From Patescibacteria group bacterium (lineage in GTDB: Bacteria; Patescibacteriota; Minisyncoccia; Phycocordibacterales; JAKAEA01): 64,000 bases of DNA. How positions within the stretch are numbered: the stretch's first letter is position 1; every line of letters begins with the position of its first letter. The notes beneath the pieces were generated by a model. It worked only from the letters and a program-made list of their open reading frames with translations, had not been told where the DNA came from and did not search any database. Shown here in pieces: positions 42,825-57,447 of the stretch. The DNA lies in assembly GCA_040387855.1 (NCBI GenBank), contig JAZKCY010000001.1, positions 381,857-445,856 on the forward strand, in the 5' to 3' direction. The translations under genes were made by a program, and so were the position numbers.

Positions 42825-43088
42825 ATGTCATACCGAATTCTTTTTGATTGCATCTTAGGTATCTCAATATTCTTTTTGCCTTGGTGGATTCCATTTTTAG
42901 CAGCTTGTATAGCCGTATTTTTTCTAGATTCATTTTATGAAATTGTTGTGCTGGGCGTGATCATTGATTCGCTGTATAATGCACCTATAGTTCGCTTTCA
43001 CAATATTCAGTTTGTAATTACATTTCTTGCTCTCTTTGTTACGTTGATAGGTTCATTTATAAAAAACAAATTAAGATTTTATAACTAA
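42825..43088 (+). CDS. mreD: Rod-shape protein MreD-like small membrane protein
   Basis: 87 aa with 3 TM. Placed between mreC and the PBP2 gene. Confidence 0.5.
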   Translation: MSYRILFDCILGISIFFLPWWIPFLAACIAVFFLDSFYEIVVLGVIIDSLYNAPIVRFHNIQFVITFLALFVTLIGSFIKNKLRFYN

Positions 43089-44803
43089 TGGTTAGGTTTA
43101 AGGACATTAAAAAAATATTCTCACGAAAAAGAACGTTTAATAATGTTGATATTGCTCCAGATGAGATTCTTATTGATGCATCAAATCTCCCAGAATTTGA
43201 TCAACATCAATTTGAAGGTCGAATTGAAAAACCGATTTCGCCGCGGATTATTATATTTCTCGGATTTATTTTTTTAGCAGTTGGTGGGGTATTCACATAT
43301 AAGGCTTGGTCACTTCAAATTGCTAATGGTGCAGAGTTTGCTGAGCGTAGTGAAAACAACAGCTTGCGTCATACTCTCGTATTTTCTGATCGAGGGGTTA
43401 TTTATGATCGCAATAAAACACTCTTGGCTTGGAATATTAAAAATCCTGAAGATGATGATTTCTCATTTAGAAGGTATGCAACAACAACAGGTCTTTCAAA
43501 TTTGATTGGATACATTAAATATCCGTCAAAAGACACCTCGGGTTTTTACTATCGAGAAGATTATCTCGGTATGGACGGAATCGAAAAGTTTTACAACGAA
43601 AAATTGAAGGGAACTAATGGTTTGAAAATTACCGAAACAGATGTTCACCGTACGGTGATTTCTCAGAGTGTATTGAATCCGCCAGAAACTGGAGGTGATG
43701 TTGTACTTTCAATAGATTCACGAATCCAGTCAAAGATGTATGACGTTATTGCACAAGTTGCACAGGAGCGTGGATTTACAGGAGGAGCTGGGGCAATGAT
43801 GGATGTTCGTACAGGGGAAATAATTGCTTCGGTTACATATCCAGAGTACAACTCTCAAGTACTCACCGATGGAACTGACCGTGAAAAAATCCAGCATTAC
43901 TTTACCGATAAAAGCACTCCTGTGCTCGATCGTGTTTCTTCTGGGTTGTATACACCTGGTTCTATTGTAAAGCCATTTATGTCTATTGCAGCGCTTAGTG
44001 AAAAGGTTATTACACCTGAAAAAGTGATTTATACAACAGGATCTATTTCACTTAAGAATCCATACAATCCAGATATTACCTATGTATTTCGTGATTGGAA
44101 AAATCATGGACCTGTAGATATGCGTAAAGCAATTGAACAATCTTCAGATGTGTATTTTTATGAGGTGGGTGGTGGATATCAAGATCAAAAGGGAATGGGG
44201 ATTTTAAATATAGAAAAATATTCTCGAATGTTTGGTTTTGGTCGCCCTGTAGGGTCAGACTTTTTTGGAAATAAAGCAGGAACAATTCCTAGTCCGGATT
44301 GGAAAAAAGCAACGTTTGATGGAGAAGAATGGACTGTGGGAAATACCTATCACTCGGTGATTGGTCAATATGGTTTTCAGGTAACGCCACTTCAGGTGGT
44401 GCGATCTGTAGCTGCTATCGCAAATTATGGAACGCTCGTTAAGCCAACTATTATTTCTGGAGACACAACAATGATGGATGAAACTGAAAAGATCAATTTA
44501 CCGCGGTCATATTTTAATGTGGCACATGAAGGAATGCGTCAGGCAGCTGTACAAGGCAGTGCACAGGCTCTCAATGTGTCATATGTGAAATTTGGAGCTA
44601 AGACTGGTACAGCAGAGCTTGGTGTAAAGAAGGATTTTGTAAACTCATGGGTAACAGGGTTTTTTCCTTATGAAAATCCCAAGTATTCGTTTGTTGTACT
44701 AATGGAGCGTGGACCGGTAAAAAACCTAGTAGGAGCTTCATCCGTTAGCCGACAGATCTTTGATTGGATGAATGTTAATACGCCAGAATACTTTGCAAAT
44801 TAA
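43088..44803 (+). CDS. mrdA: Penicillin-binding protein 2 (elongasome transpeptidase)
   Basis: SxxK (GSIVKPF), SSDVYF and KTGTA motifs. N-terminal TM and dimerisation domain. Its start overlaps the mreD stop. Confidence 0.85.
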   Translation: MVRFKDIKKIFSRKRTFNNVDIAPDEILIDASNLPEFDQHQFEGRIEKPISPRIIIFLGFIFLAVGGVFTYKAWSLQIANGAEFAERSENNSLRHTLVFSDRGVIYDRNKTLLAWNIKNPEDDDFSFRRYATTTGLSNLIGYIKYPSKDTSGFYYREDYLGMDGIEKFYNEKLKGTNGLKITETDVHRTVISQSVLNPPETGGDVVLSIDSRIQSKMYDVIAQVAQERGFTGGAGAMMDVRTGEIIASVTYPEYNSQVLTDGTDREKIQHYFTDKSTPVLDRVSSGLYTPGSIVKPFMSIAALSEKVITPEKVIYTTGSISLKNPYNPDITYVFRDWKNHGPVDMRKAIEQSSDVYFYEVGGGYQDQKGMGILNIEKYSRMFGFGRPVGSDFFGNKAGTIPSPDWKKATFDGEEWTVGNTYHSVIGQYGFQVTPLQVVRSVAAIANYGTLVKPTIISGDTTMMDETEKINLPRSYFNVAHEGMRQAAVQGSAQALNVSYVKFGAKTGTAELGVKKDFVNSWVTGFFPYENPKYSFVVLMERGPVKNLVGASSVSRQIFDWMNVNTPEYFAN

Positions 44804-45348: not shown

Positions 45349-47250
45349 ATGGCATCACTAGAAGAATTACGTGAAGCTCGGCTTCAAAAGCTAGAGCTTC
45401 TTAAAAAAGAGGGCATTAATCCATATCCTGCAAAAACAAAGCGTGATCATTCTATAGATCATGTTATTAGTAGTTTTGAAAATTTAGAGAAAGAACAAAC
45501 AACTATCACACTCGCAGGACGAGTAATGTCTATTCGAGCGCAAGGTGGATTGGTTTTCTTTAACTTATTTGACGGTACTGCAAAATTTCAAGGCTTACTA
45601 AAACAAGAAGAAGTAGATGCAAAAATCTATGATCTTTTTAATGCTGCAGTAGATATTGGAGACTTTGTAGAAGTAACCGGAACAGTATTTGTAACTAAGC
45701 GTGGAGAAAAAACACTCAGTGTTAAATCATGGGCAATGCTTTCAAAAACTATGTTGCCACTTCCAGAAAAATGGCATGGTCTACAGGATAATGATGAAAA
45801 GCTTCGTAAGCGATATTTAGATATTCTGTTTAATCCTGAACTTAAAGATCTTATAGAAAAGAAAGCAAAGTTTTGGCAATCAATGAGAAACTTTTTAATT
45901 ACTGAAGGTTTCTTAGAAGTTGAAACTCCAATTATAGAAAATACTACTGGAGGTGCAGATGCTCGACCTTTTGCTACTCACCACAATGCTTTAGATATTG
46001 ATGTATATCTTAGAATTTCAGCTGGTGAATTATGGCAAAAGAGATTAATGGTTGCTGGTTTTCCAAAAGTTTTTGAAATAGGACGAGTATTCCGAAATGA
46101 AGGAATGTCGCCAGAGCATGCTCAGGATTATACTCAGATGGAATTTTACTGGGGCTATGCTGATTATGAAAAAGGCATGGATTTAGTAGAGCGAATGTAC
46201 AAGTATGTAGCTCAGGAGACGTTTGGCAAACTTCAATTTAAAATTGGAGAATTTGATGTCGATTTAAACAAAACATGGGAACGATTTGATTATGCAGAAA
46301 CTATTAAGAAATTTACTGAAATAGATATTTCACAGGCTACTCTTCAAGAGATTGAAGAAAAATTAAGAGCACTTGAAATTAAATTTGATACTAATGGTTG
46401 GAACTTTTCTCGTGCAGTAGATATCCTTTGGAAATATTGTCGAAAGCAAATTAGTGGTCCTGGATTTCTAGTTAATGTACCAAAGTTTCTTTCACCACTT
46501 GCTAAGTCACATGAGGGAAATACAAATGTTGTACAGCAATTCCAGCCCCTCATTGCAGGTAGTGAGCTTGGGAAGGGTTATAGTGAGCTTAATGACCCAA
46601 TAGATCAAGCAGAACGATTTTTGGAGCAAGAGAAGCTACGTTTAGATGGTGATGAAGAAGCACAAATGAATGATACCGACTTTGTTGAGGCTCTTGAGCA
46701 TGGTATGCCTCCTACATGTGGGTTCGGAATTAGTGAGCGGTTATTCTCATATCTTGCAAATAAGCCTATTCGAGAAACTCAGATTTTCCCATTGATGAAA
46801 CCACTTCAAGAAGGTGGAGCAAAAAAGAAAGAAGCAAAAGTTGCGGTAGCTCTTATTAATAAGGGAGCAAACCTTGTAGGCTGGCAGGAAAAAAATGCTA
46901 TAGCTCATCTTACTGCAGCATTTGGCGCACGAAGAGGAAAAGAACTATTTAAATTTAATTCTGTAGCAACTTCGGATGATCAAAAGATTAATTTAAATAT
47001 TCAGCATGCTATCTTAATTAAAGATGCAGACTCATCTGATGCATTGTATAATGTATCTCACGTAGCAAAATCACAGGGACTCGAAGTTTCTGAATTTACC
47101 CGTGAAATGCTTGAGACAACCAACGATAAAAAGGTTGCTGAAAATACAAAGTCGAAACCTGTAAAAGATATAGAATTCCTTGGAGTTCTTGTCTTTGGGT
47201 ATAAATCAGAAGTTGACGAATTAACAAAACAGTTTAAACTTTCAGAATAA
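45349..47250 (+). CDS. lysS: Lysyl-tRNA synthetase (class II) with a ~150-aa C-terminal extension
   Basis: OB-fold N-domain and class II motifs 1-3 (FRNEG, GFGIGIDR-type). The canonical LysRS body ends near ...IFPLMKP (~aa 485). The remaining ~150 aa form an extra domain. Confidence 0.85.
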   Translation: MASLEELREARLQKLELLKKEGINPYPAKTKRDHSIDHVISSFENLEKEQTTITLAGRVMSIRAQGGLVFFNLFDGTAKFQGLLKQEEVDAKIYDLFNAAVDIGDFVEVTGTVFVTKRGEKTLSVKSWAMLSKTMLPLPEKWHGLQDNDEKLRKRYLDILFNPELKDLIEKKAKFWQSMRNFLITEGFLEVETPIIENTTGGADARPFATHHNALDIDVYLRISAGELWQKRLMVAGFPKVFEIGRVFRNEGMSPEHAQDYTQMEFYWGYADYEKGMDLVERMYKYVAQETFGKLQFKIGEFDVDLNKTWERFDYAETIKKFTEIDISQATLQEIEEKLRALEIKFDTNGWNFSRAVDILWKYCRKQISGPGFLVNVPKFLSPLAKSHEGNTNVVQQFQPLIAGSELGKGYSELNDPIDQAERFLEQEKLRLDGDEEAQMNDTDFVEALEHGMPPTCGFGISERLFSYLANKPIRETQIFPLMKPLQEGGAKKKEAKVAVALINKGANLVGWQEKNAIAHLTAAFGARRGKELFKFNSVATSDDQKINLNIQHAILIKDADSSDALYNVSHVAKSQGLEVSEFTREMLETTNDKKVAENTKSKPVKDIEFLGVLVFGYKSEVDELTKQFKLSE

Positions 47251-47260
47251 TTACAAATAT

Positions 47261-47905
47261 ATGAAAAATCGCAGTTCAAAAATAATAACAATAGTACTTG
47301 CTATAGTAGTAGTACTTATCGTTGGGGCATATCTTATTTACAAGTCAGTAGGTCCAAAGGTACTAGCATTCACTATAGAGCAACCATCATTGATTGCTAC
47401 AGGAAAGAAACTTTCAAATGTTGAAGTATGGGCAATTCAAAACAATGAAGGAAAAGAAGTTGCAGTAAAGCTTGGAGCCATGGAACTTCAGGAAGCAGAT
47501 GCAAATGGAAACCAGACATGGACAATGGAAGTGCCAGAAAAGCCATCAGCAGAGGTTACAAAGCTTGTCGCACGAGGTTATGCAAGTAGTTTCCGTGTTG
47601 GAACATTAGAACTTCCAGCCGCAACACCTGCAGATCTTAATGCAGAAGTATGGCCATCAAAATCAGTTGAAGGTATTACCGGAGGTATTAAATCTATTAC
47701 AGGTAAGAAAATGGAATTCGGAATGGATGTACCAGTAGGAGGAATGCTCAACGTGACCCTTGCTGACAACGTTAAAATAACCGATTCACGAGGACGACCT
47801 GCAGCAGTAAGCTTGCTTAAGCCACGAACTAGAATTGCAATTATCGGAGAATTTACAGACGATATTGAATTCATGGCAACAGCAATCGAAATTCTCGCTA
47901 AATAA
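47261..47905 (+). CDS. Membrane-anchored hypothetical protein
   Basis: N-terminal TM (IITIVLAIVVVLIVGAYLIY) followed by a soluble domain. Confidence 0.4.
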   Translation: MKNRSSKIITIVLAIVVVLIVGAYLIYKSVGPKVLAFTIEQPSLIATGKKLSNVEVWAIQNNEGKEVAVKLGAMELQEADANGNQTWTMEVPEKPSAEVTKLVARGYASSFRVGTLELPAATPADLNAEVWPSKSVEGITGGIKSITGKKMEFGMDVPVGGMLNVTLADNVKITDSRGRPAAVSLLKPRTRIAIIGEFTDDIEFMATAIEILAK

Positions 47906-47928
47906 ACCTCAAAATAACTTTAGTTTCA

Positions 47929-47962
47929 GAAAACAGCTTTACACATGAGTAAAGCTGTTTTC
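47929..47962. promoter_or_regulatory. Perfect 13-bp inverted repeat gaaaacagcttta-N8-taaagctgttttc
   Basis: Seen directly. Lies between the 47905 stop and the mraZ repeat array. No strong U-tract follows. Confidence 0.45.
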
Positions 47963-47984
47963 TATTGCCTCATTAAGCCATAAA

Positions 47985-48049
47985 GTGGATAAGTATGGTT
48001 GAGAATGGTTGAGAGTGGTATATAATGGTATGAAGTGGGATGAAGTGGT
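47985..48049 (+). promoter_or_regulatory. Array of seven GTGG(T/G)/TGGT(T/A) direct repeats at exact 10-bp phasing upstream of mraZ (candidate MraZ operator), overlapping a TATAAT box
   Basis: Motif positions 47985, 47996, 48006, 48015, 48027, 48035 and 48045. tataat at 48021-48026. mraZ starts at 48077. Confidence 0.6.
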
Positions 48050-48076
48050 ATATCCGACAAATAATAGAAACACATA

Positions 48077-48511
48077 ATGTTAATTGGCGAATATACACAC
48101 TCAATAGACGATAAGAACAGAATGTCTTTGCCAGCAAAATTCCGAAAGGAAGTTGGTAAGAAAGTCGTTCTAACTCATGGTCTAGATAATTGTTTATTCA
48201 TTTACCCACTAAAGGAATGGGAGAAGATTGCAGAGAAACTCTCTGGATTGAGTATGGGACAAGCAGATACTCGAGGGTTCAACCGATTTATGCTTGCAGG
48301 TGCAGCAGAAGTTGATGTTGATGCAGTTGGACGAATGCTTATCCCAGAGCATCTTGCCAATTTTGCAAAGCTTGAAGGAAAAGTAGTATGTGCTGGTGTG
48401 CATAACCGAATCGAATTATGGAACGAAACGACATGGATGGATTACAAGAAGAGAATTTCAGCACAAGCCGACCAACTAGCCGAAAAGCTCGGGGAGATCG
48501 GAGTATTGTAA
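48077..48511 (+). CDS. mraZ: Transcriptional regulator MraZ
   Basis: 144 aa with the duplicated MraZ domain. First gene of the dcw block. Confidence 0.9.
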   Translation: MLIGEYTHSIDDKNRMSLPAKFRKEVGKKVVLTHGLDNCLFIYPLKEWEKIAEKLSGLSMGQADTRGFNRFMLAGAAEVDVDAVGRMLIPEHLANFAKLEGKVVCAGVHNRIELWNETTWMDYKKRISAQADQLAEKLGEIGVL

Positions 48512-49416
48512 GTGCGCCATTTGGCCACATAAGTGTTCTTTTACATGAAGCAATAGATGGTTTGGACTTAAAGTCAGGCGATATCCTGCTTGATGGAACG
48601 CTCGGAAGCGGGGGACACACTGAAGGAGTGGTCAAACGACATGGAGATTCTATTAAGATAATCGCACTTGATGCAGATGAAGATGCTTTAGCTCGATCTA
48701 AAAAAAGATTGGCTGAGTATAAAAAATCTGACATTACCTTTGTTCAAGAGAATTTTAGAAATTTAGATAAAGTTCTAGATACTCTAAAAATAGAGCATGT
48801 TACTAAAGTGCTCTTGGATATCGGACTGAGTTCAAACCAATTTGAAGAGTCAGGAAGAGGATTCTCCTTCCAGAAAGATGAGCCTCTAGCTATGACTTTC
48901 AAAAAGAATCCATCTGAAGAAGATGTTACCGCACGAGTAATCGTCAATGAATGGAGTGAAGAAACACTCAATCTCATTTTGAAAGGCTATGGAGAAGAGC
49001 AGTTTGCCTACAAGATCGCAAAAGCGATTGTAGCAACACGCGAAGAATATCCCATAGAAACAACAGGAGAACTTGTAGCAATTATAGATGCTGTTGTGCC
49101 AGGGTGGTACAAGCACCGCAAAATGCATTTTGCAACAAAGACATTTCAAGCATTGCGAATTGCAGCAAATGATGAACTTAAGGCTTTGGAAGAGGGAATT
49201 AAAAAAGCCTTCGATAAATTGGAAAAAAATGGCAGATTAGCAGTCATATCATTCCATAGTTTAGAGGATCGCATCGTAAAACAATTTTTTAAACAGAAAC
49301 AAACTGAAGGTACGGCAATTCTTTTAACAAAAAAGCCAATTATACCCAGTGATGAAGAATTAGAAGTAAATAGAAGGGCACGTAGCGCAAAATTAAGAAT
49401 ATTAGTTAAACAGTAA
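48433..49416 (+). CDS. rsmH: 16S rRNA (cytosine1402-N4)-methyltransferase RsmH (MraW)
   Basis: HISVLLHEAIDGL, GTLGSGGHT and DIGLSSNQFE motifs. The exact start is uncertain: it is either the ATG at 48433 overlapping mraZ, or a non-ATG start near 48512. Confidence 0.85.
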   Translation: MDGLQEENFSTSRPTSRKARGDRSIVSAPFGHISVLLHEAIDGLDLKSGDILLDGTLGSGGHTEGVVKRHGDSIKIIALDADEDALARSKKRLAEYKKSDITFVQENFRNLDKVLDTLKIEHVTKVLLDIGLSSNQFEESGRGFSFQKDEPLAMTFKKNPSEEDVTARVIVNEWSEETLNLILKGYGEEQFAYKIAKAIVATREEYPIETTGELVAIIDAVVPGWYKHRKMHFATKTFQALRIAANDELKALEEGIKKAFDKLEKNGRLAVISFHSLEDRIVKQFFKQKQTEGTAILLTKKPIIPSDEELEVNRRARSAKLRILVKQ

Positions 49417-49420
49417 GCAT

Positions 49421-49750
49421 ATGAACTCACGAACAAAAACATTAAGTGTACCAGTATGGCATAAAGTTAGTACAAAGGTTCTTTTCTTTGTTCTTGCAAG
49501 CTGTCTTGTAACCGTGTTTGCTGTGTATGCTTTTATGGTGAATAAAACCATTATGAATGTGGTAGCTCGAGAAGATCTTGAGCAAGAAATTGCAAACCTA
49601 TCTTCAACAATAGGAGAACTTGAATTTAAATATATGAGTGTGAAGAGCAAAGTAACTCTTGATCTCGCATATGAAAAAGGATTTCAGGATGCTGTGCCAT
49701 CACAGTTTGTATCACGAACTGGTCCTGCACTTTCATACAACACTCGATAA
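49421..49750 (+). CDS. ftsL: Cell division protein FtsL-like (bitopic, coiled coil)
   Basis: 109 aa with a single TM and a coiled coil. Lies between rsmH and ftsI. Confidence 0.6.
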   Translation: MNSRTKTLSVPVWHKVSTKVLFFVLASCLVTVFAVYAFMVNKTIMNVVAREDLEQEIANLSSTIGELEFKYMSVKSKVTLDLAYEKGFQDAVPSQFVSRTGPALSYNTR

Positions 49751-49777
49751 TAGTCCGTGGTATACTAAAAGGGTATT

Positions 49778-51484
49778 ATGAGCTCCAACGTAACAAGAAT
49801 TCGACTTATTTCTATTGCAGTAATTATTTTTGCTGGAATGCTTGTTACAAAACTATATTATGTTCAAATCGTATCAGGTGATACGTTTTCAGAGCGTGCA
49901 GATCGACAATATACTCGTCCAGTTGGAGGGGTTTTTAATCGTGGAACAGTTTTCTTCCAAGCAAAAGATGGAACACTTATGGCAGCAGCGTCACTTAAGA
50001 CTGGATACACTGTTGCAGTAAATCCAAAGCTTTTAAAAAAGCCAGATGAAGTATATGAAAAAATAAATAAACTTTTACCACTTGAAAAAGAACTTTTTAT
50101 TACTAAAGCTACAAAGTTGAATGATCCTTATGAAGAAATTGCAAAGAGAATAGAACCTGATGTTGCTGTTTCTATAGATAATTTAAATATCCCAGGTGTA
50201 AATATTTATAAAGAAAAATGGAGATACTATCCGGGTGAAAATTTGGCATCACAAGTCTTAGGCTTCGTGGGTTTTAAAGGTGATTCACTCGGTGGACGAT
50301 ACGGTCTTGAAAATCAGTATGAAAGTGTACTAAAGCGAACTGATGAAAATGTGTATGTAAACTTTTTTGCTGAAATCTTTTCAGATATTCATAAAACCTT
50401 TACTGATACAGGTACAATAGAAGGAGATATTACATCAACTATAGAACCAAATGTTCAAACTTTCGTTGAAAAAGAATTGAAAGAACTAAATGAGAAGTTC
50501 AACTCAAAGCTTACTGGGGGAATCGTGATAGACCCAAATACTGGCGAGATAGTTTCAATGGCTGCATATCCTAGCTACAATCCAAATTCATTCCAAACCG
50601 AAAAGAATGTAGGTGTGTTTACAAACCCAATGGTACAAAATGTGTACGAAATGGGTTCTATTGTAAAACCTCTCACCGTAGCTGCGGGAATCGATTCAGG
50701 TGCTATTACTGCAGATACTACCTATTATGATGCAGGTTTTCTAACTATGAATGGTAAGACTATTTATAACTACGATAAAAAAGGAAGAGGTACGGTAGAC
50801 ATGCAGCAAGTGCTCAATAAGTCTCTCAACACTGGTGTATCGTTTATAGTTAAAAAAATGGGGAATAAAAAGTTCTCACAGTATATGCTTGATTTTGGTT
50901 TGGGCGAGAGAACAGGAATAGATTTACCAAACGAATCAAAAGGATTGGTTGAAAACCTAAAGAGTACTCGAGATATCGAACATGCCACTGCGTCATTCGG
51001 GCAAGGTATTGCTATGAGCCCAATTGCTATTACACGCGCACTTTCAACCTTAGCAAACGGAGGAAAATTAATTACTCCCCATGTTGTAAAAAAGATTGAT
51101 TACAAAGTGGGTTTTTCAAAAGAGATTACGTATCCTGAAGGTAAACAAGTGTTAAAGCCTGAAACATCAAAAGAAATATCTCGTATGCTTACCGAAGTCG
51201 TAGACAAAGCTTTGCTTGAAGGTAAAGTAAAAATGGATAATTATTCTATTGCTGCAAAAACCGGAACTGCTCAAATCGCAAACGGAGGAAGTAGAGGATA
51301 TACCGATGAGAAATATCTCCACTCATTCTTTGGATATTTCCCAGCAACTAATCCCAAATTTTTAGTTTTCTTGTATACTGTAGAGCCTCAGGGTGTGGAA
51401 TATGCCTCAAACTCTCTGACTGAGCCGTTTGTGGATATTACTAAATACTTGATAAACTATTACGAAGTACCACCAGACAGATAA
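49778..51484 (+). CDS. ftsI: Peptidoglycan D,D-transpeptidase FtsI (PBP3-class)
   Basis: GSIVKPL (SxxK), SLNTG (SxN) and KTGTAQ motifs. N-terminal TM. Confidence 0.85.
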   Translation: MSSNVTRIRLISIAVIIFAGMLVTKLYYVQIVSGDTFSERADRQYTRPVGGVFNRGTVFFQAKDGTLMAAASLKTGYTVAVNPKLLKKPDEVYEKINKLLPLEKELFITKATKLNDPYEEIAKRIEPDVAVSIDNLNIPGVNIYKEKWRYYPGENLASQVLGFVGFKGDSLGGRYGLENQYESVLKRTDENVYVNFFAEIFSDIHKTFTDTGTIEGDITSTIEPNVQTFVEKELKELNEKFNSKLTGGIVIDPNTGEIVSMAAYPSYNPNSFQTEKNVGVFTNPMVQNVYEMGSIVKPLTVAAGIDSGAITADTTYYDAGFLTMNGKTIYNYDKKGRGTVDMQQVLNKSLNTGVSFIVKKMGNKKFSQYMLDFGLGERTGIDLPNESKGLVENLKSTRDIEHATASFGQGIAMSPIAITRALSTLANGGKLITPHVVKKIDYKVGFSKEITYPEGKQVLKPETSKEISRMLTEVVDKALLEGKVKMDNYSIAAKTGTAQIANGGSRGYTDEKYLHSFFGYFPATNPKFLVFLYTVEPQGVEYASNSLTEPFVDITKYLINYYEVPPDR

Positions 51485-51502
51485 TTCCAGATAATAAATC
51501 AT

Positions 51503-52813
51503 ATGAAAACGTTATTTAAGAAAGCAGTTATTTCTATTCTTAGTTGGGAGGCTCGGATGGTTTTGAAGAAATATAAACCAAAGATTGTAGGAGTAACCGG
51601 ATCAGTTGGAAAGACTTCTACAAAAGATGCTATTTACACAGTCCTTTCAGCAAAATTTAAAACTCGAAAAAGTCAGAAAAGCTTTAATAGCGAATTTGGA
51701 GTGCCGCTTACAATTTTAGGATTGCCAAATGGTTGGAATAATCCTTTTATTTGGTTGCTAAATATTATAGAGGGATTTTTGTTTTTTGTTTTGCCATTTA
51801 AATATCCCGAGTGGCTCGTACTTGAGATTGGAGCTGACATGCCTGGTGATATTAAGAAAATTACTGAATGGGTAAAACCTGATGTTTCTGTTATTACTCG
51901 TTTTGGAGATGTTCCTGTGCATGTGGAATTTTTCCCATCTATTGAAGATCTCATAAATGAAAAGGGGCATCTTGCACGAGCATTAAAGCCAGATGGAACT
52001 CTTATTTTAAATAATGATGACAAGCGTGTTATTGCTTTTGGTGAAAGTGATCTCCATAAAAAAATTACCTATGGTAGAGAATTTGGTGCACAGGTACATG
52101 CAACAGATGAACGAATTGCTTACAAGAAATATGAAAATTCAGAATTAGAATTTCCAGAGGGAATTAATTTTAAGATTAATCATGCAGGCACAAGCATACC
52201 GGCATATGTGCATGAGACACTGGGATATCAGCACATGTATCCCATCTTAGCAGCAACTGCTGTGGGTATTTCACAAGGGATGAATCTTGTTGAAATTTCA
52301 GAAGCACTAGAAAATCATCAGTCACCAAAAGGACGAATGCGGCTTATTGCAGGAAACAGAGATACTCTTATTGTAGACGATACCTACAACTCTTCTCCTG
52401 TGGCTGCTCATGCTGCACTTGAAGCACTTACTGAACTTAAACTTGCTGGAAGAAAAATCGCTGTTCTTGGAGACATGATGGAGCTTGGTGATTATTCAAT
52501 TGATGAACATAAAAAGATAGGGGAAGCAGCTGCAAAGACTGTTGATTTGTTTGTGGCTGTGGGTATTCGAATGCGAGGTGCTGCAGAGGCTGCGCTTGAT
52601 GCACAGATGGATGAAATGAGTGTTATGCAGTTTGATACATCAGTTGAAGCCGCACAGTTCTTAGAGAAAATAATTAAGCCCGGAGATATTGTGCTTATTA
52701 AAGGCTCTCAGTCTATGCGTATGGAACGAGCAGTAGAAGAAATCATGAGACATCCAGAACATGCAGAAGATCTCTTAGTACGCCAGGATAAACAGTGGAT
52801 TGCTAAAAAGTAG
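51503..52813 (+). CDS. murF: UDP-N-acetylmuramoyl-tripeptide--D-alanyl-D-alanine ligase MurF
   Basis: VGVTGSVGKTSTKD P-loop and the Mur ligase middle and C-terminal domains. Confidence 0.85.
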   Translation: MKTLFKKAVISILSWEARMVLKKYKPKIVGVTGSVGKTSTKDAIYTVLSAKFKTRKSQKSFNSEFGVPLTILGLPNGWNNPFIWLLNIIEGFLFFVLPFKYPEWLVLEIGADMPGDIKKITEWVKPDVSVITRFGDVPVHVEFFPSIEDLINEKGHLARALKPDGTLILNNDDKRVIAFGESDLHKKITYGREFGAQVHATDERIAYKKYENSELEFPEGINFKINHAGTSIPAYVHETLGYQHMYPILAATAVGISQGMNLVEISEALENHQSPKGRMRLIAGNRDTLIVDDTYNSSPVAAHAALEALTELKLAGRKIAVLGDMMELGDYSIDEHKKIGEAAAKTVDLFVAVGIRMRGAAEAALDAQMDEMSVMQFDTSVEAAQFLEKIIKPGDIVLIKGSQSMRMERAVEEIMRHPEHAEDLLVRQDKQWIAKK

Positions 52814-56850: not shown

Positions 56851-57447
56851 TTTGGGAAAATATCTTTGCTCGGCAAATGTTAATTCTGCTTCAGACAATT
56901 CTTTTTTGCTTGCAAATGCCCATAGCTCAAAATCTTGTATTCGTCTTTTCCCAATTACAGATTTAAAGCCAACTGATTTCAAAGAATATAAAAGTACAGG
57001 AAGCGTAAAACCTGTTTTATGTGTCATATATGTTTTACCTTCTGCTATTGCTTTGCGAAAACCATAGAGCATATCTAAAGGGGTGACTGGACCCTCAGGG
57101 GACATATATATTTCTTCAAGTAATTTACCCTCAGCCACTAAAGATGCAATAGCTTGAAGATCTGGGCATGCGATAAGCACAAATCCATCAGAGTTAAGAA
57201 CACGAATAAATTCATCAAATGCTTTGTGAACCTCTTGTGGATAGAGATGTTCTACGGTATGAGATGTAAACACAGCATCAAAAGATTCTGTGGCTATTTG
57301 TGGCATATTGGTTATATCACCAACAACATCTGGTTTTAGTTCGGGATCAAGATCTAATCGTGTTTCTTTCCATTCATCAGGTTCAAATGATACAGGGATT
57401 TCTCGGTAGGTCTTTTCACCACTACCTGCATGTAAAAGTGATTTCAT
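56848..57447 (-). CDS. Class I SAM-dependent methyltransferase (Methyltransf_11-like)
   Basis: Typical motif spacing (DVVGDITNMP, FDAVFTSHTVEHL, LNSDGFVLIACPD). Confidence 0.6.
   Translation of the reverse strand: MKSLLHAGSGEKTYREIPVSFEPDEWKETRLDLDPELKPDVVGDITNMPQIATESFDAVFTSHTVEHLYPQEVHKAFDEFIRVLNSDGFVLIACPDLQAIASLVAEGKLLEEIYMSPEGPVTPLDMLYGFRKAIAEGKTYMTHKTGFTLPVLLYSLKSVGFKSVIGKRRIQDFELWAFASKKELSEAELTFAEQRYFPK

Follow-up and report, generated by a model that had tools for sequence, protein, structure and literature searches.

MraZ is among the most widely conserved bacterial transcription factors. Its published operators consist of GTG(G/T) boxes separated by 6-nt spacers, and the published box consensus begins with G (PMC12957436). 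In B. subtilis there are three GTGG[A/T]G boxes. The operators of E. coli and B. subtilis are direct repeats with a GTGG/TGGG core and a 10-bp pitch, situated just upstream of the mraZ gene heading the dcw cluster, and are bound by a MraZ protein with two DXXXR motifs, giving autorepression. The four-box operator of M. genitalium is built of AAAGTGT-N3 three times, followed by AAAGTGG (PMC12957436). In the cryo-EM structures of M. genitalium MraZ on DNA published in 2026 (PDB 9qlr, 9qlg), the residues K13, R15 and R86 read the T-G-(T/G) of each box, with D11 and D82 keeping the arginines in position, and the first G of GTG(G/T) is contacted in one box only (PMC12957436). The closed octamer misfits straight DNA and must open; four subunits of the opened octamer bind the four boxes cooperatively, and affinity as well as repression drop stepwise as boxes are mutated (PMC12957436). 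Furthermore, continuous MraZ fibres form on concatenated four-box DNA (PMC12957436), so that MraZ can in principle follow runs longer than four boxes. MraZ of M. gallisepticum is an activator according to a report cited in PMC12957436. A search of the literature revealed no description of MraZ operators in Patescibacteria.

In the window, i.e. the whole stretch of 64,000 nt of Patescibacteria DNA analysed here, we detected seven RTGG boxes upstream of mraZ, all in the same orientation, sharing the core TGG and standing in a strict 10-bp register without any phase slip (Table 1). Read in tens from position 47980, the region is ATAAAGTGGA / TAAGTATGGT / TGAGAATGGT / TGAGAGTGGT / ATATAATGGT / ATGAAGTGGG / ATGAAGTGGT. 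The sequence-only reading had described seven GTGG(T/G)-type repeats at an exact 10-bp periodicity. The periodicity is borne out by the true starts, but three of the positions it quoted deviate from these (47996 and 48006 by 1 nt each, 48027 by 2 nt) and are themselves at odds with an exact pitch. The motif needs a wider wording: of the four GTGG boxes three are literally GTGG(T/G) and box 1 reads GTGGA, whereas ATGGT stands at boxes 2, 3 and 5. That seven exceeds the usual number was correctly seen, the literature giving three boxes, and four in some Mycoplasma. E. coli K-12, subjected to the identical counting script as a control, yielded exactly three (GTGGGAAATT-GTGGGGCAAA-GTGGG), which indicates that the script does not inflate numbers.

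Table 1. Features of the mraZ promoter region and of the genes downstream of it (positions in the window).
Feature	Position	Strand	Sequence or product	Remarks
Hairpin	47928..47963	+	15-bp stem AGAAAACAGCUUUAC / GUAAAGCUGUUUUCU	6-nt loop; U-rich tail 3'
Box 1	47985-47989	+	GTGGA	within 9-mer AGTGGATAA (47984..47992), 8/9 match to the complement of the DnaA box
Box 2	47995..47999	+	ATGGT	directly abuts predicted -35 hexamer
Predicted -35 hexamer	47999..48004	+	TTGAGA	promoter scan; TTGAG kept in close clade
Box 3	48005..48009	+	ATGGT	10-bp unit ATGGTTGAGA, exact copy of box 2 unit
Box 4	48015..48019	+	GTGGT	directly 5' of -10 hexamer
Predicted -10 hexamer	48021..48026	+	TATAAT	promoter scan; class-wide TAtAaT, at fixed distance from box 4
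Box 5	48025..48029	+	ATGGT	first two bases are last two of -10 hexamer
Box 6	48035..48039	+	GTGGG	on predicted transcription start
Box 7	48045..48049	+	GTGGT	about +11 to +16, in putative 5' UTR
mraZ	48077..48511	+	144 aa; Pfam MraZ, E 1.5e-37	two domains; presumed array-binding protein
rsmH/mraW	48418-49416	+	Pfam match	mechanical ORF
ftsL-sized ORF	49421-49750	+		no Pfam match
ftsI-type PBP	49778-51484	+	Pfam match	
Mur ligase	51503-52813	+	Pfam match	

Such an array is not to be expected by chance. The frequency of RTGG on the plus strand of the window is 0.009 per position, and runs of RTGG at 10-bp spacing on both strands of the 64 kb comprised 13 pairs and one run of seven, without intermediate lengths. 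The triple RTGG-N6-RTGG-N6-RTGG occurred five times in the window, in overlapping fashion and every time within the array, compared to 0.03 expected per window from dinucleotide-preserving shuffles. Relaxing the core to RTG(G/T) gave no further triple in the 64 kb. Apart from the array there were no triples of MraZ type in the window, and the single GTGG-N6-GTGG pair found elsewhere, at 57290, looks like chance; a wider MraZ regulon is not visible within this window. An Rfam search of positions 47200-48700 (E <= 1) returned two chance-level matches only, and this region is explained by no known RNA element.

The array spans a predicted sigma-70 promoter. The best promoter match of the region, TTGAGA-16 nt-TATAAT, agrees with the consensus at 11 of 12 positions; over a 600-bp stretch the scan returned 3 sites compared to 1.9 expected. 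The TATAAT which the sequence-only reading had noted at 48021 is indeed present and overlaps box 5. Transcription would start at about 48033-48035, about 7 nt past the -10 hexamer, and the boxes would then reach from about -49 to +16, which is essentially the footprint of RNA polymerase. The TG of box 4 could act as an extended -10 element (TGnTATATA). The duplication of the box 2 unit has produced a second TTGAGA at 48009-48014, only 6 nt from the -10 hexamer, which is too near to serve it and is possibly a decoy -35.

Upstream of the array, RNA folding revealed a hairpin (47928-47963) with a perfect stem and a free energy of -21.2 kcal/mol (z = -6.6; 0 of 200 shuffles as stable). It was seen on folding only, a simple terminator scan making no call at this position. 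The sequence of the stem (CAGCTTTAC...GTAAAGCTG) is kept in close relatives regardless of the gene upstream, and the loop varies. The hairpin is probably the intrinsic terminator of the upstream ORF, insulating the mraZ promoter against read-through; its sequence conservation is unusually high for a terminator. The upstream ORF (47261-47905, 214 aa, no Pfam match, N-terminal hydrophobic segment) lies between lysS and mraZ. In the related loci L162 and L164 lysS immediately precedes the mraZ promoter, so that this ORF looks like a lineage-specific insertion. The lysyl-tRNA synthetase itself (45349-47250, 633 aa) carries a C-terminal DUF2000, a fusion also present upstream of mraZ in L162 and L164.

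The array ends 27 nt before the ATG of mraZ. As the sequence-only reading had proposed, it stands directly 5' of a true mraZ gene, the first of a short dcw cluster, in which mraZ is followed by rsmH, an ftsL-sized ORF, ftsI and a Mur ligase gene and which is closed by a GAF histidine kinase. The genes from 48418 to 52813 are presumably driven by the mraZ promoter. The mechanical rsmH ORF opens at an ATG 94 nt inside mraZ. RsmH of relatives has 300 aa and starts just past mraZ; in the window (48418-48514) there is no in-frame ATG, GTG or TTG from the mraZ stop codon to the conserved HxxVLL motif. The true rsmH start is probably situated just 3' of mraZ. Two class B penicillin-binding proteins, each with a transpeptidase and a dimerisation domain, are encoded within 7 kb, one within the mraZ operon (49778-51484) and one upstream, beside greA and lysS (43088-44803).

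The MraZ protein of the window can be aligned without gaps over residues 1-124 to MraZ of M. pneumoniae (1n0e, E 2e-24) and M. genitalium (9qlr, 9qlg, E 6e-21). Both DXXXR motifs align gap-free, and D11, K13, R15, S17, D82 and R86 are all present. According to our reading of the structure alignment, the residues F36, F52 and F58 of the M. genitalium oligomer interface are replaced by L, A and L.

The locus thus resembles the E. coli and B. subtilis operators in the GTGG/TGGG core, the pitch, the position in front of a mraZ gene heading a dcw cluster and the two DXXXR motifs of the protein. It differs from them in having seven boxes in register instead of three, which cover -35, -10 and start site together, in three boxes beginning with A, and in an outermost upstream box that lies inside a 9-mer resembling a DnaA box. 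With M. genitalium it shares the pitch, the A-rich 5' flank in front of the core, a (predicted) transcription start within a box and the residues K13, R15 and R86. The cooperative, stepwise dependence on each box and the opening of the ring along straight DNA are features of the M. genitalium system. In contrast to M. genitalium there are seven slots, the core preferably ends in GG rather than GT, some boxes overlap the promoter hexamers or lie next to them, and the residues of the oligomer interface are partly different.

The sequence-only reading had suggested that the repeats be looked for in orthologous promoters. We compared 168 related loci (80 species genomes, 80 metagenomes and 8 close relatives obtained by exact look-up), and the repeats proved to be kept both in the close clade and across 141 promoters of Paceibacteria. 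The metagenome scan yielded none above 78% MraZ identity, the closest promoters coming from single look-ups, and the closest relative, P0002 (MraZ 92% identical), was left out of the promoter comparison. All but 4 of the 168 loci contain a GTGG-N6-GTGG pair upstream of mraZ, and for two of these 4 the upstream sequence is limited to 126 nt. In the closest clade, represented by 12 non-identical promoters and with MraZ proteins 78-83% identical, boxes 1, 2, 4, 5, 6 and 7 are conserved, with the consensus aAA.GtGGATAA.TaTGGTTGag...GG......gtGGtATATAATGG.a..aAGTGGGAg.AaGTGGTA. The columns of the TGG cores are 98% identical, compared to 83% in the remaining columns. Box 2 reads ATGGTTG in 11 of the 12, box 5 (TATAATGG) is invariant in all 12, and so is the GTGGGA of box 6, which also belongs to the strongest column block class-wide. 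In the slot of box 3 we found ATGG, GTGG, TTGG, TCGG or CCGG, the GG alone being invariant. In several close relatives (L003, L004, L166, L167 and L168) the 5' UTR is longer and contains, between the last MraZ box and the ATG, a conserved stem-loop (AGCUCAUCCGUC...GACGGAUGAGCU; L003 2450-2490, -19.1 kcal/mol, z = -3.5); the window is without it. This stem-loop might be an additional element of post-transcriptional control in these relatives.

Class-wide, slots were counted in 141 non-redundant mraZ promoters of Paceibacteria, anchored on the last GTGG-N6-GTGG pair. Slot 4 carries GTG(G/T) in 96% of the loci, slot 3 is occupied in 91%, usually by GTGGGA, and slot 1 in 83%. The values for slots 2 and 5 are 53% and 39%. 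A hypothetical eighth slot further upstream is filled in 23%, which is near the level of the shuffle control (17% for any slot). Five to seven slots are filled in 123 of the 141 promoters and all seven in 28, compared to 0.0% of the shuffles. The design of the class thus ends at seven slots, of which 1, 3, 4, 6 and 7 are nearly universal and 2 and 5 are optional. The consensus of the class reads gtGgatAa.t.tgt.g....gTGGg..a.AGTGGtaTAtAaTg and continues with aaGTGGGA.aaAGTGGtAaa, with AGTGGtaTAtAaT as the part comprising box 4. From box 4 to box 7 the distance is 31 bp in 101 of 131 promoters and 30 bp in 18, including those of the window's clade. Most Paceibacteria have an 11-bp step from slot 5 to slot 6 and no box 5, which indicates that the common design is one of two plus two boxes around the -10 hexamer rather than a continuous run. 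The 30-bp spacing indicates that the lineage of the window brought all slots into one register.

Taken together, we consider it likely that the array is an operator at which MraZ represses this promoter through at least boxes 4, 6 and 7. MraZ, the product of the same promoter, would dock at first on the strongest boxes, namely boxes 6 and 7 at the start site (GTGGGA, GTGGTA) and box 4 against the -10 hexamer (GTGGT). The oligomeric ring would then open, as it does in M. genitalium, adjacent subunits placing their beta-sheet 'cradle' motifs into successive major grooves, and the weaker ATGG boxes 5, 3 and 2, over or beside the -10 and -35 hexamers, might be used subsequently, together with box 1. 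With -35, -10 and start site covered, RNA polymerase would be excluded, resulting in a negative autoregulation of mraZ-rsmH-ftsL-ftsI-mur. We infer from the sequence that MraZ binds, in which order the steps occur, how many subunits take part, where transcription starts and that the outcome is repression, not activation. The cooperative coating of the promoter, also proposed by the sequence-only reading, may reasonably be deduced from the M. genitalium structure. That one opened MraZ oligomer occupies all seven boxes at once is a more tentative proposal, which we would rather doubt than affirm. At a pitch of 10.0 bp compared to about 10.5 bp per helical turn, successive boxes are turned by about 17 degrees, amounting to about 100 degrees over six steps, which is compatible with supra-helical MraZ-DNA fibres. 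The variability of box 3, the behaviour of the box 1 9-mer, the changed interface residues and the activator role in M. gallisepticum count against this explanation, as do the position of boxes 2 and 5 at the promoter hexamers and the two plus two design of most Paceibacteria.

One of these points concerns box 1. Class-wide, it coincides with the 9-mer TGTGGATAA, which on the opposite strand reads as the canonical DnaA box TTATCCACA. Perfect copies of TGTGGATAA occupy slot 1 in 50 of the first 80 loci, and only six others were found on both strands of 399 kb. With one mismatch allowed, the forward 9-mer is present about -62 from the last MraZ box in 120 of 137 non-redundant loci. Twelve of the 17 loci without a forward copy contain a reversed, TTATCCACA-type 9-mer at -66 to -90, for which the chance is 0.7% per region. 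A 9-mer resembling a DnaA box in either orientation is thus located just upstream of the core promoter of mraZ in about 96% of the 137 Paceibacteria promoters. Exact agreement with TTWTNCACA, the DnaA box consensus as used in PMC7561715, was observed for 101 of 132 copies (TTATCCACA 82, TTATACACA 8, TTATGCACA 6, TTTTCCACA 5), and the variation is concentrated at positions 3 and 5, both free in this consensus. The matches to 'MraZ' in PMC7561715 concern the author name Mrazek and not the protein. Copies such as TGTGCATAA and TGGGGATAA no longer contain an intact MraZ core, yet they comply, or nearly comply, with what a DnaA box permits. Furthermore, box 1 is flanked by a conserved T on the 5' side of GTGG and a conserved ATAA on the 3' side, unlike boxes 3, 4, 6 and 7. 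A reversed box could not be used by a protein reading direct repeats like MraZ, and the element is therefore best read as a separate site. Class-wide, box 1 is probably the site of a different protein, or was so originally, and the 9-mer upstream of mraZ suggests a direct input of DnaA into the expression of division genes in this class.

DnaA boxes at DnaA-regulated promoters tolerate such changes and act in either orientation. The class-wide 9-mer resembles a DnaA box outside the origin in that it fits the consensus, varies at the same positions and occurs either way round. The copy in the window is less typical. Here the 9-mer is TTATCCACT on the complementary strand of 47984-47992, matching at 8 of 9 positions and failing the exact TTWTNCACA, a consensus which may not be that of the DnaA of Patescibacteria. 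TTATCCACT or TTATCCACC is found in the window and in most members of its close clade; both keep GTGG but lack the last A required by the consensus, and the close relative L168 has the perfect box. Box 1 of the window would thus descend from the class-wide 9-mer: in its lineage the first T of TGTGGATAA is changed to A, leaving AAAGTGGA, which is readable as a MraZ box. Box 1 of the window could accordingly serve MraZ, represent a decayed DnaA box, or combine the two.

These observations bear on an alternative in which control is composite: only boxes 2-7, or fewer, would belong to MraZ, and box 1 would be a functional box for DnaA, the replication initiator, at about -45 and thus just 5' of the -35 hexamer, either activating or repressing. 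The enrichment at slot 1, the reversed copies, the fit to the consensus with its free positions and the conserved flanks all speak for it. However, the copy of the window has lost a required base, as have those of its close clade by the same or a similar change, and the forward box 1 stays in phase with boxes 2-4 at 10 bp, a constraint not required of a separate site. Neither dnaA nor oriC was found in the window or the fetched loci: the window contains no perfect DnaA box, its 23 copies with one mismatch compare with 22 expected, oriC lies outside it, and a motif scan of all fetched DNA detected no dnaA gene. The literature search, too, brought up no report of a DnaA box at a mraZ promoter. 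A working DnaA site as second input is thus strongly suggested class-wide, but more weakly for the window, and for this promoter we rate composite control a little below an even chance.

The opposite simplification would be that MraZ uses only the GTGG boxes conserved in the class, 4, 6 and 7, which are the usual three sites (at most four with box 1 included), and leaves a gap at the -10 hexamer, the ATGG boxes being by-products of the TATAATGG promoter context (box 5), of the sequence in front of the -35 hexamer (box 2) and of a neutral 10-bp duplication (box 3). G is the first base of the published consensus, the ATGG boxes overlap or adjoin the promoter hexamers, the unit of box 3 repeats that of box 2 and its slot varies among close relatives, and slots 2 and 5 are filled in only about half and two fifths of the loci of the class, respectively. 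Given the overlap of box 5 with the -10 hexamer and the contact of box 2 with the -35, promoter function alone may account for the conservation of both. On the other hand, the occupancy of slots 2 and 5 is about 2-3 times that of shuffles, and the filled slots contain TGG or TGT in phase with the strong boxes. The base contacts of K13, R15 and R86 fall on T-G-(T/G) in the solved complex, so that ATGG boxes retain the contacted core. Five of the 12 close relatives have RTGG at slot 3 despite different spacers, and the loss of 1 bp between boxes 4 and 6, which aligns all seven, is hard to explain without selection for phase. We therefore regard a restriction to the GTGG boxes as unlikely, although not strongly so. 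A tandem repeat arisen by slippage and devoid of function, or a periodic DNA which bends or binds an unrelated protein, would have a ten-base periodicity as is typical of bent DNA. Tandem Repeats Finder indeed reported two 10-bp sub-arrays, ATGGTTGAGA x2.5 and TGGGATGAAG x2.3, with 92-93% matches, because boxes 2 and 3 share one and the same unit (ATGGTTGAGA) and the units of boxes 5 and 6 differ at two positions only; part of the regularity of the array hence stems from locally duplicated units. Nevertheless, the spacers diverge with the cores being kept, the slots are fixed relative to the -10 hexamer in 141 promoters of many orders, the core is the experimentally defined MraZ box beside mraZ itself, and there is no second array of this kind in the 64 kb. 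An origin of this sort is very improbable.

An operator using at least boxes 4, 6 and 7 is thus the reading we prefer. This kind of operator is already known; new are the number of boxes, the coverage of the whole promoter, the boxes sharing bases with or adjoining the hexamers and the neighbouring element resembling a DnaA box. We regard the finding as a sound, though incremental, addition to a known system. In the first MraZ-DNA structure (2026) four of the eight ring subunits sit on four boxes, the role of the other subunits being left open. A natural, phased operator of five to seven boxes across a large uncultured class is a ready substrate for questions on MraZ: does the opened ring extend along a whole promoter, how does the number of boxes relate to the strength of repression, and can weak boxes overlie the -35 and -10 elements?

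The DnaA-box-like element, if real, would be a direct link at sequence level from replication initiation to the expression of division genes, in organisms which have very few regulators and whose gene regulation has been little studied experimentally. It is conceivable, although we consider it improbable, that the division promoter of Paceibacteria is a composite switch with a DnaA box 5' of the -35 hexamer followed by a six-slot MraZ operator over the RNA polymerase footprint, and that in the lineage of the window the slots were aligned by a 1-bp deletion, the gaps were closed by new ATGG boxes and the DnaA box, having lost a required base, was turned into a seventh MraZ box. If so, the status of replication initiation and the level of MraZ would be read at one promoter, with nearly all subunits of the opened ring in use, and the conversion of box 1 would have slightly rewired the control of the cell cycle in a minimal genome.
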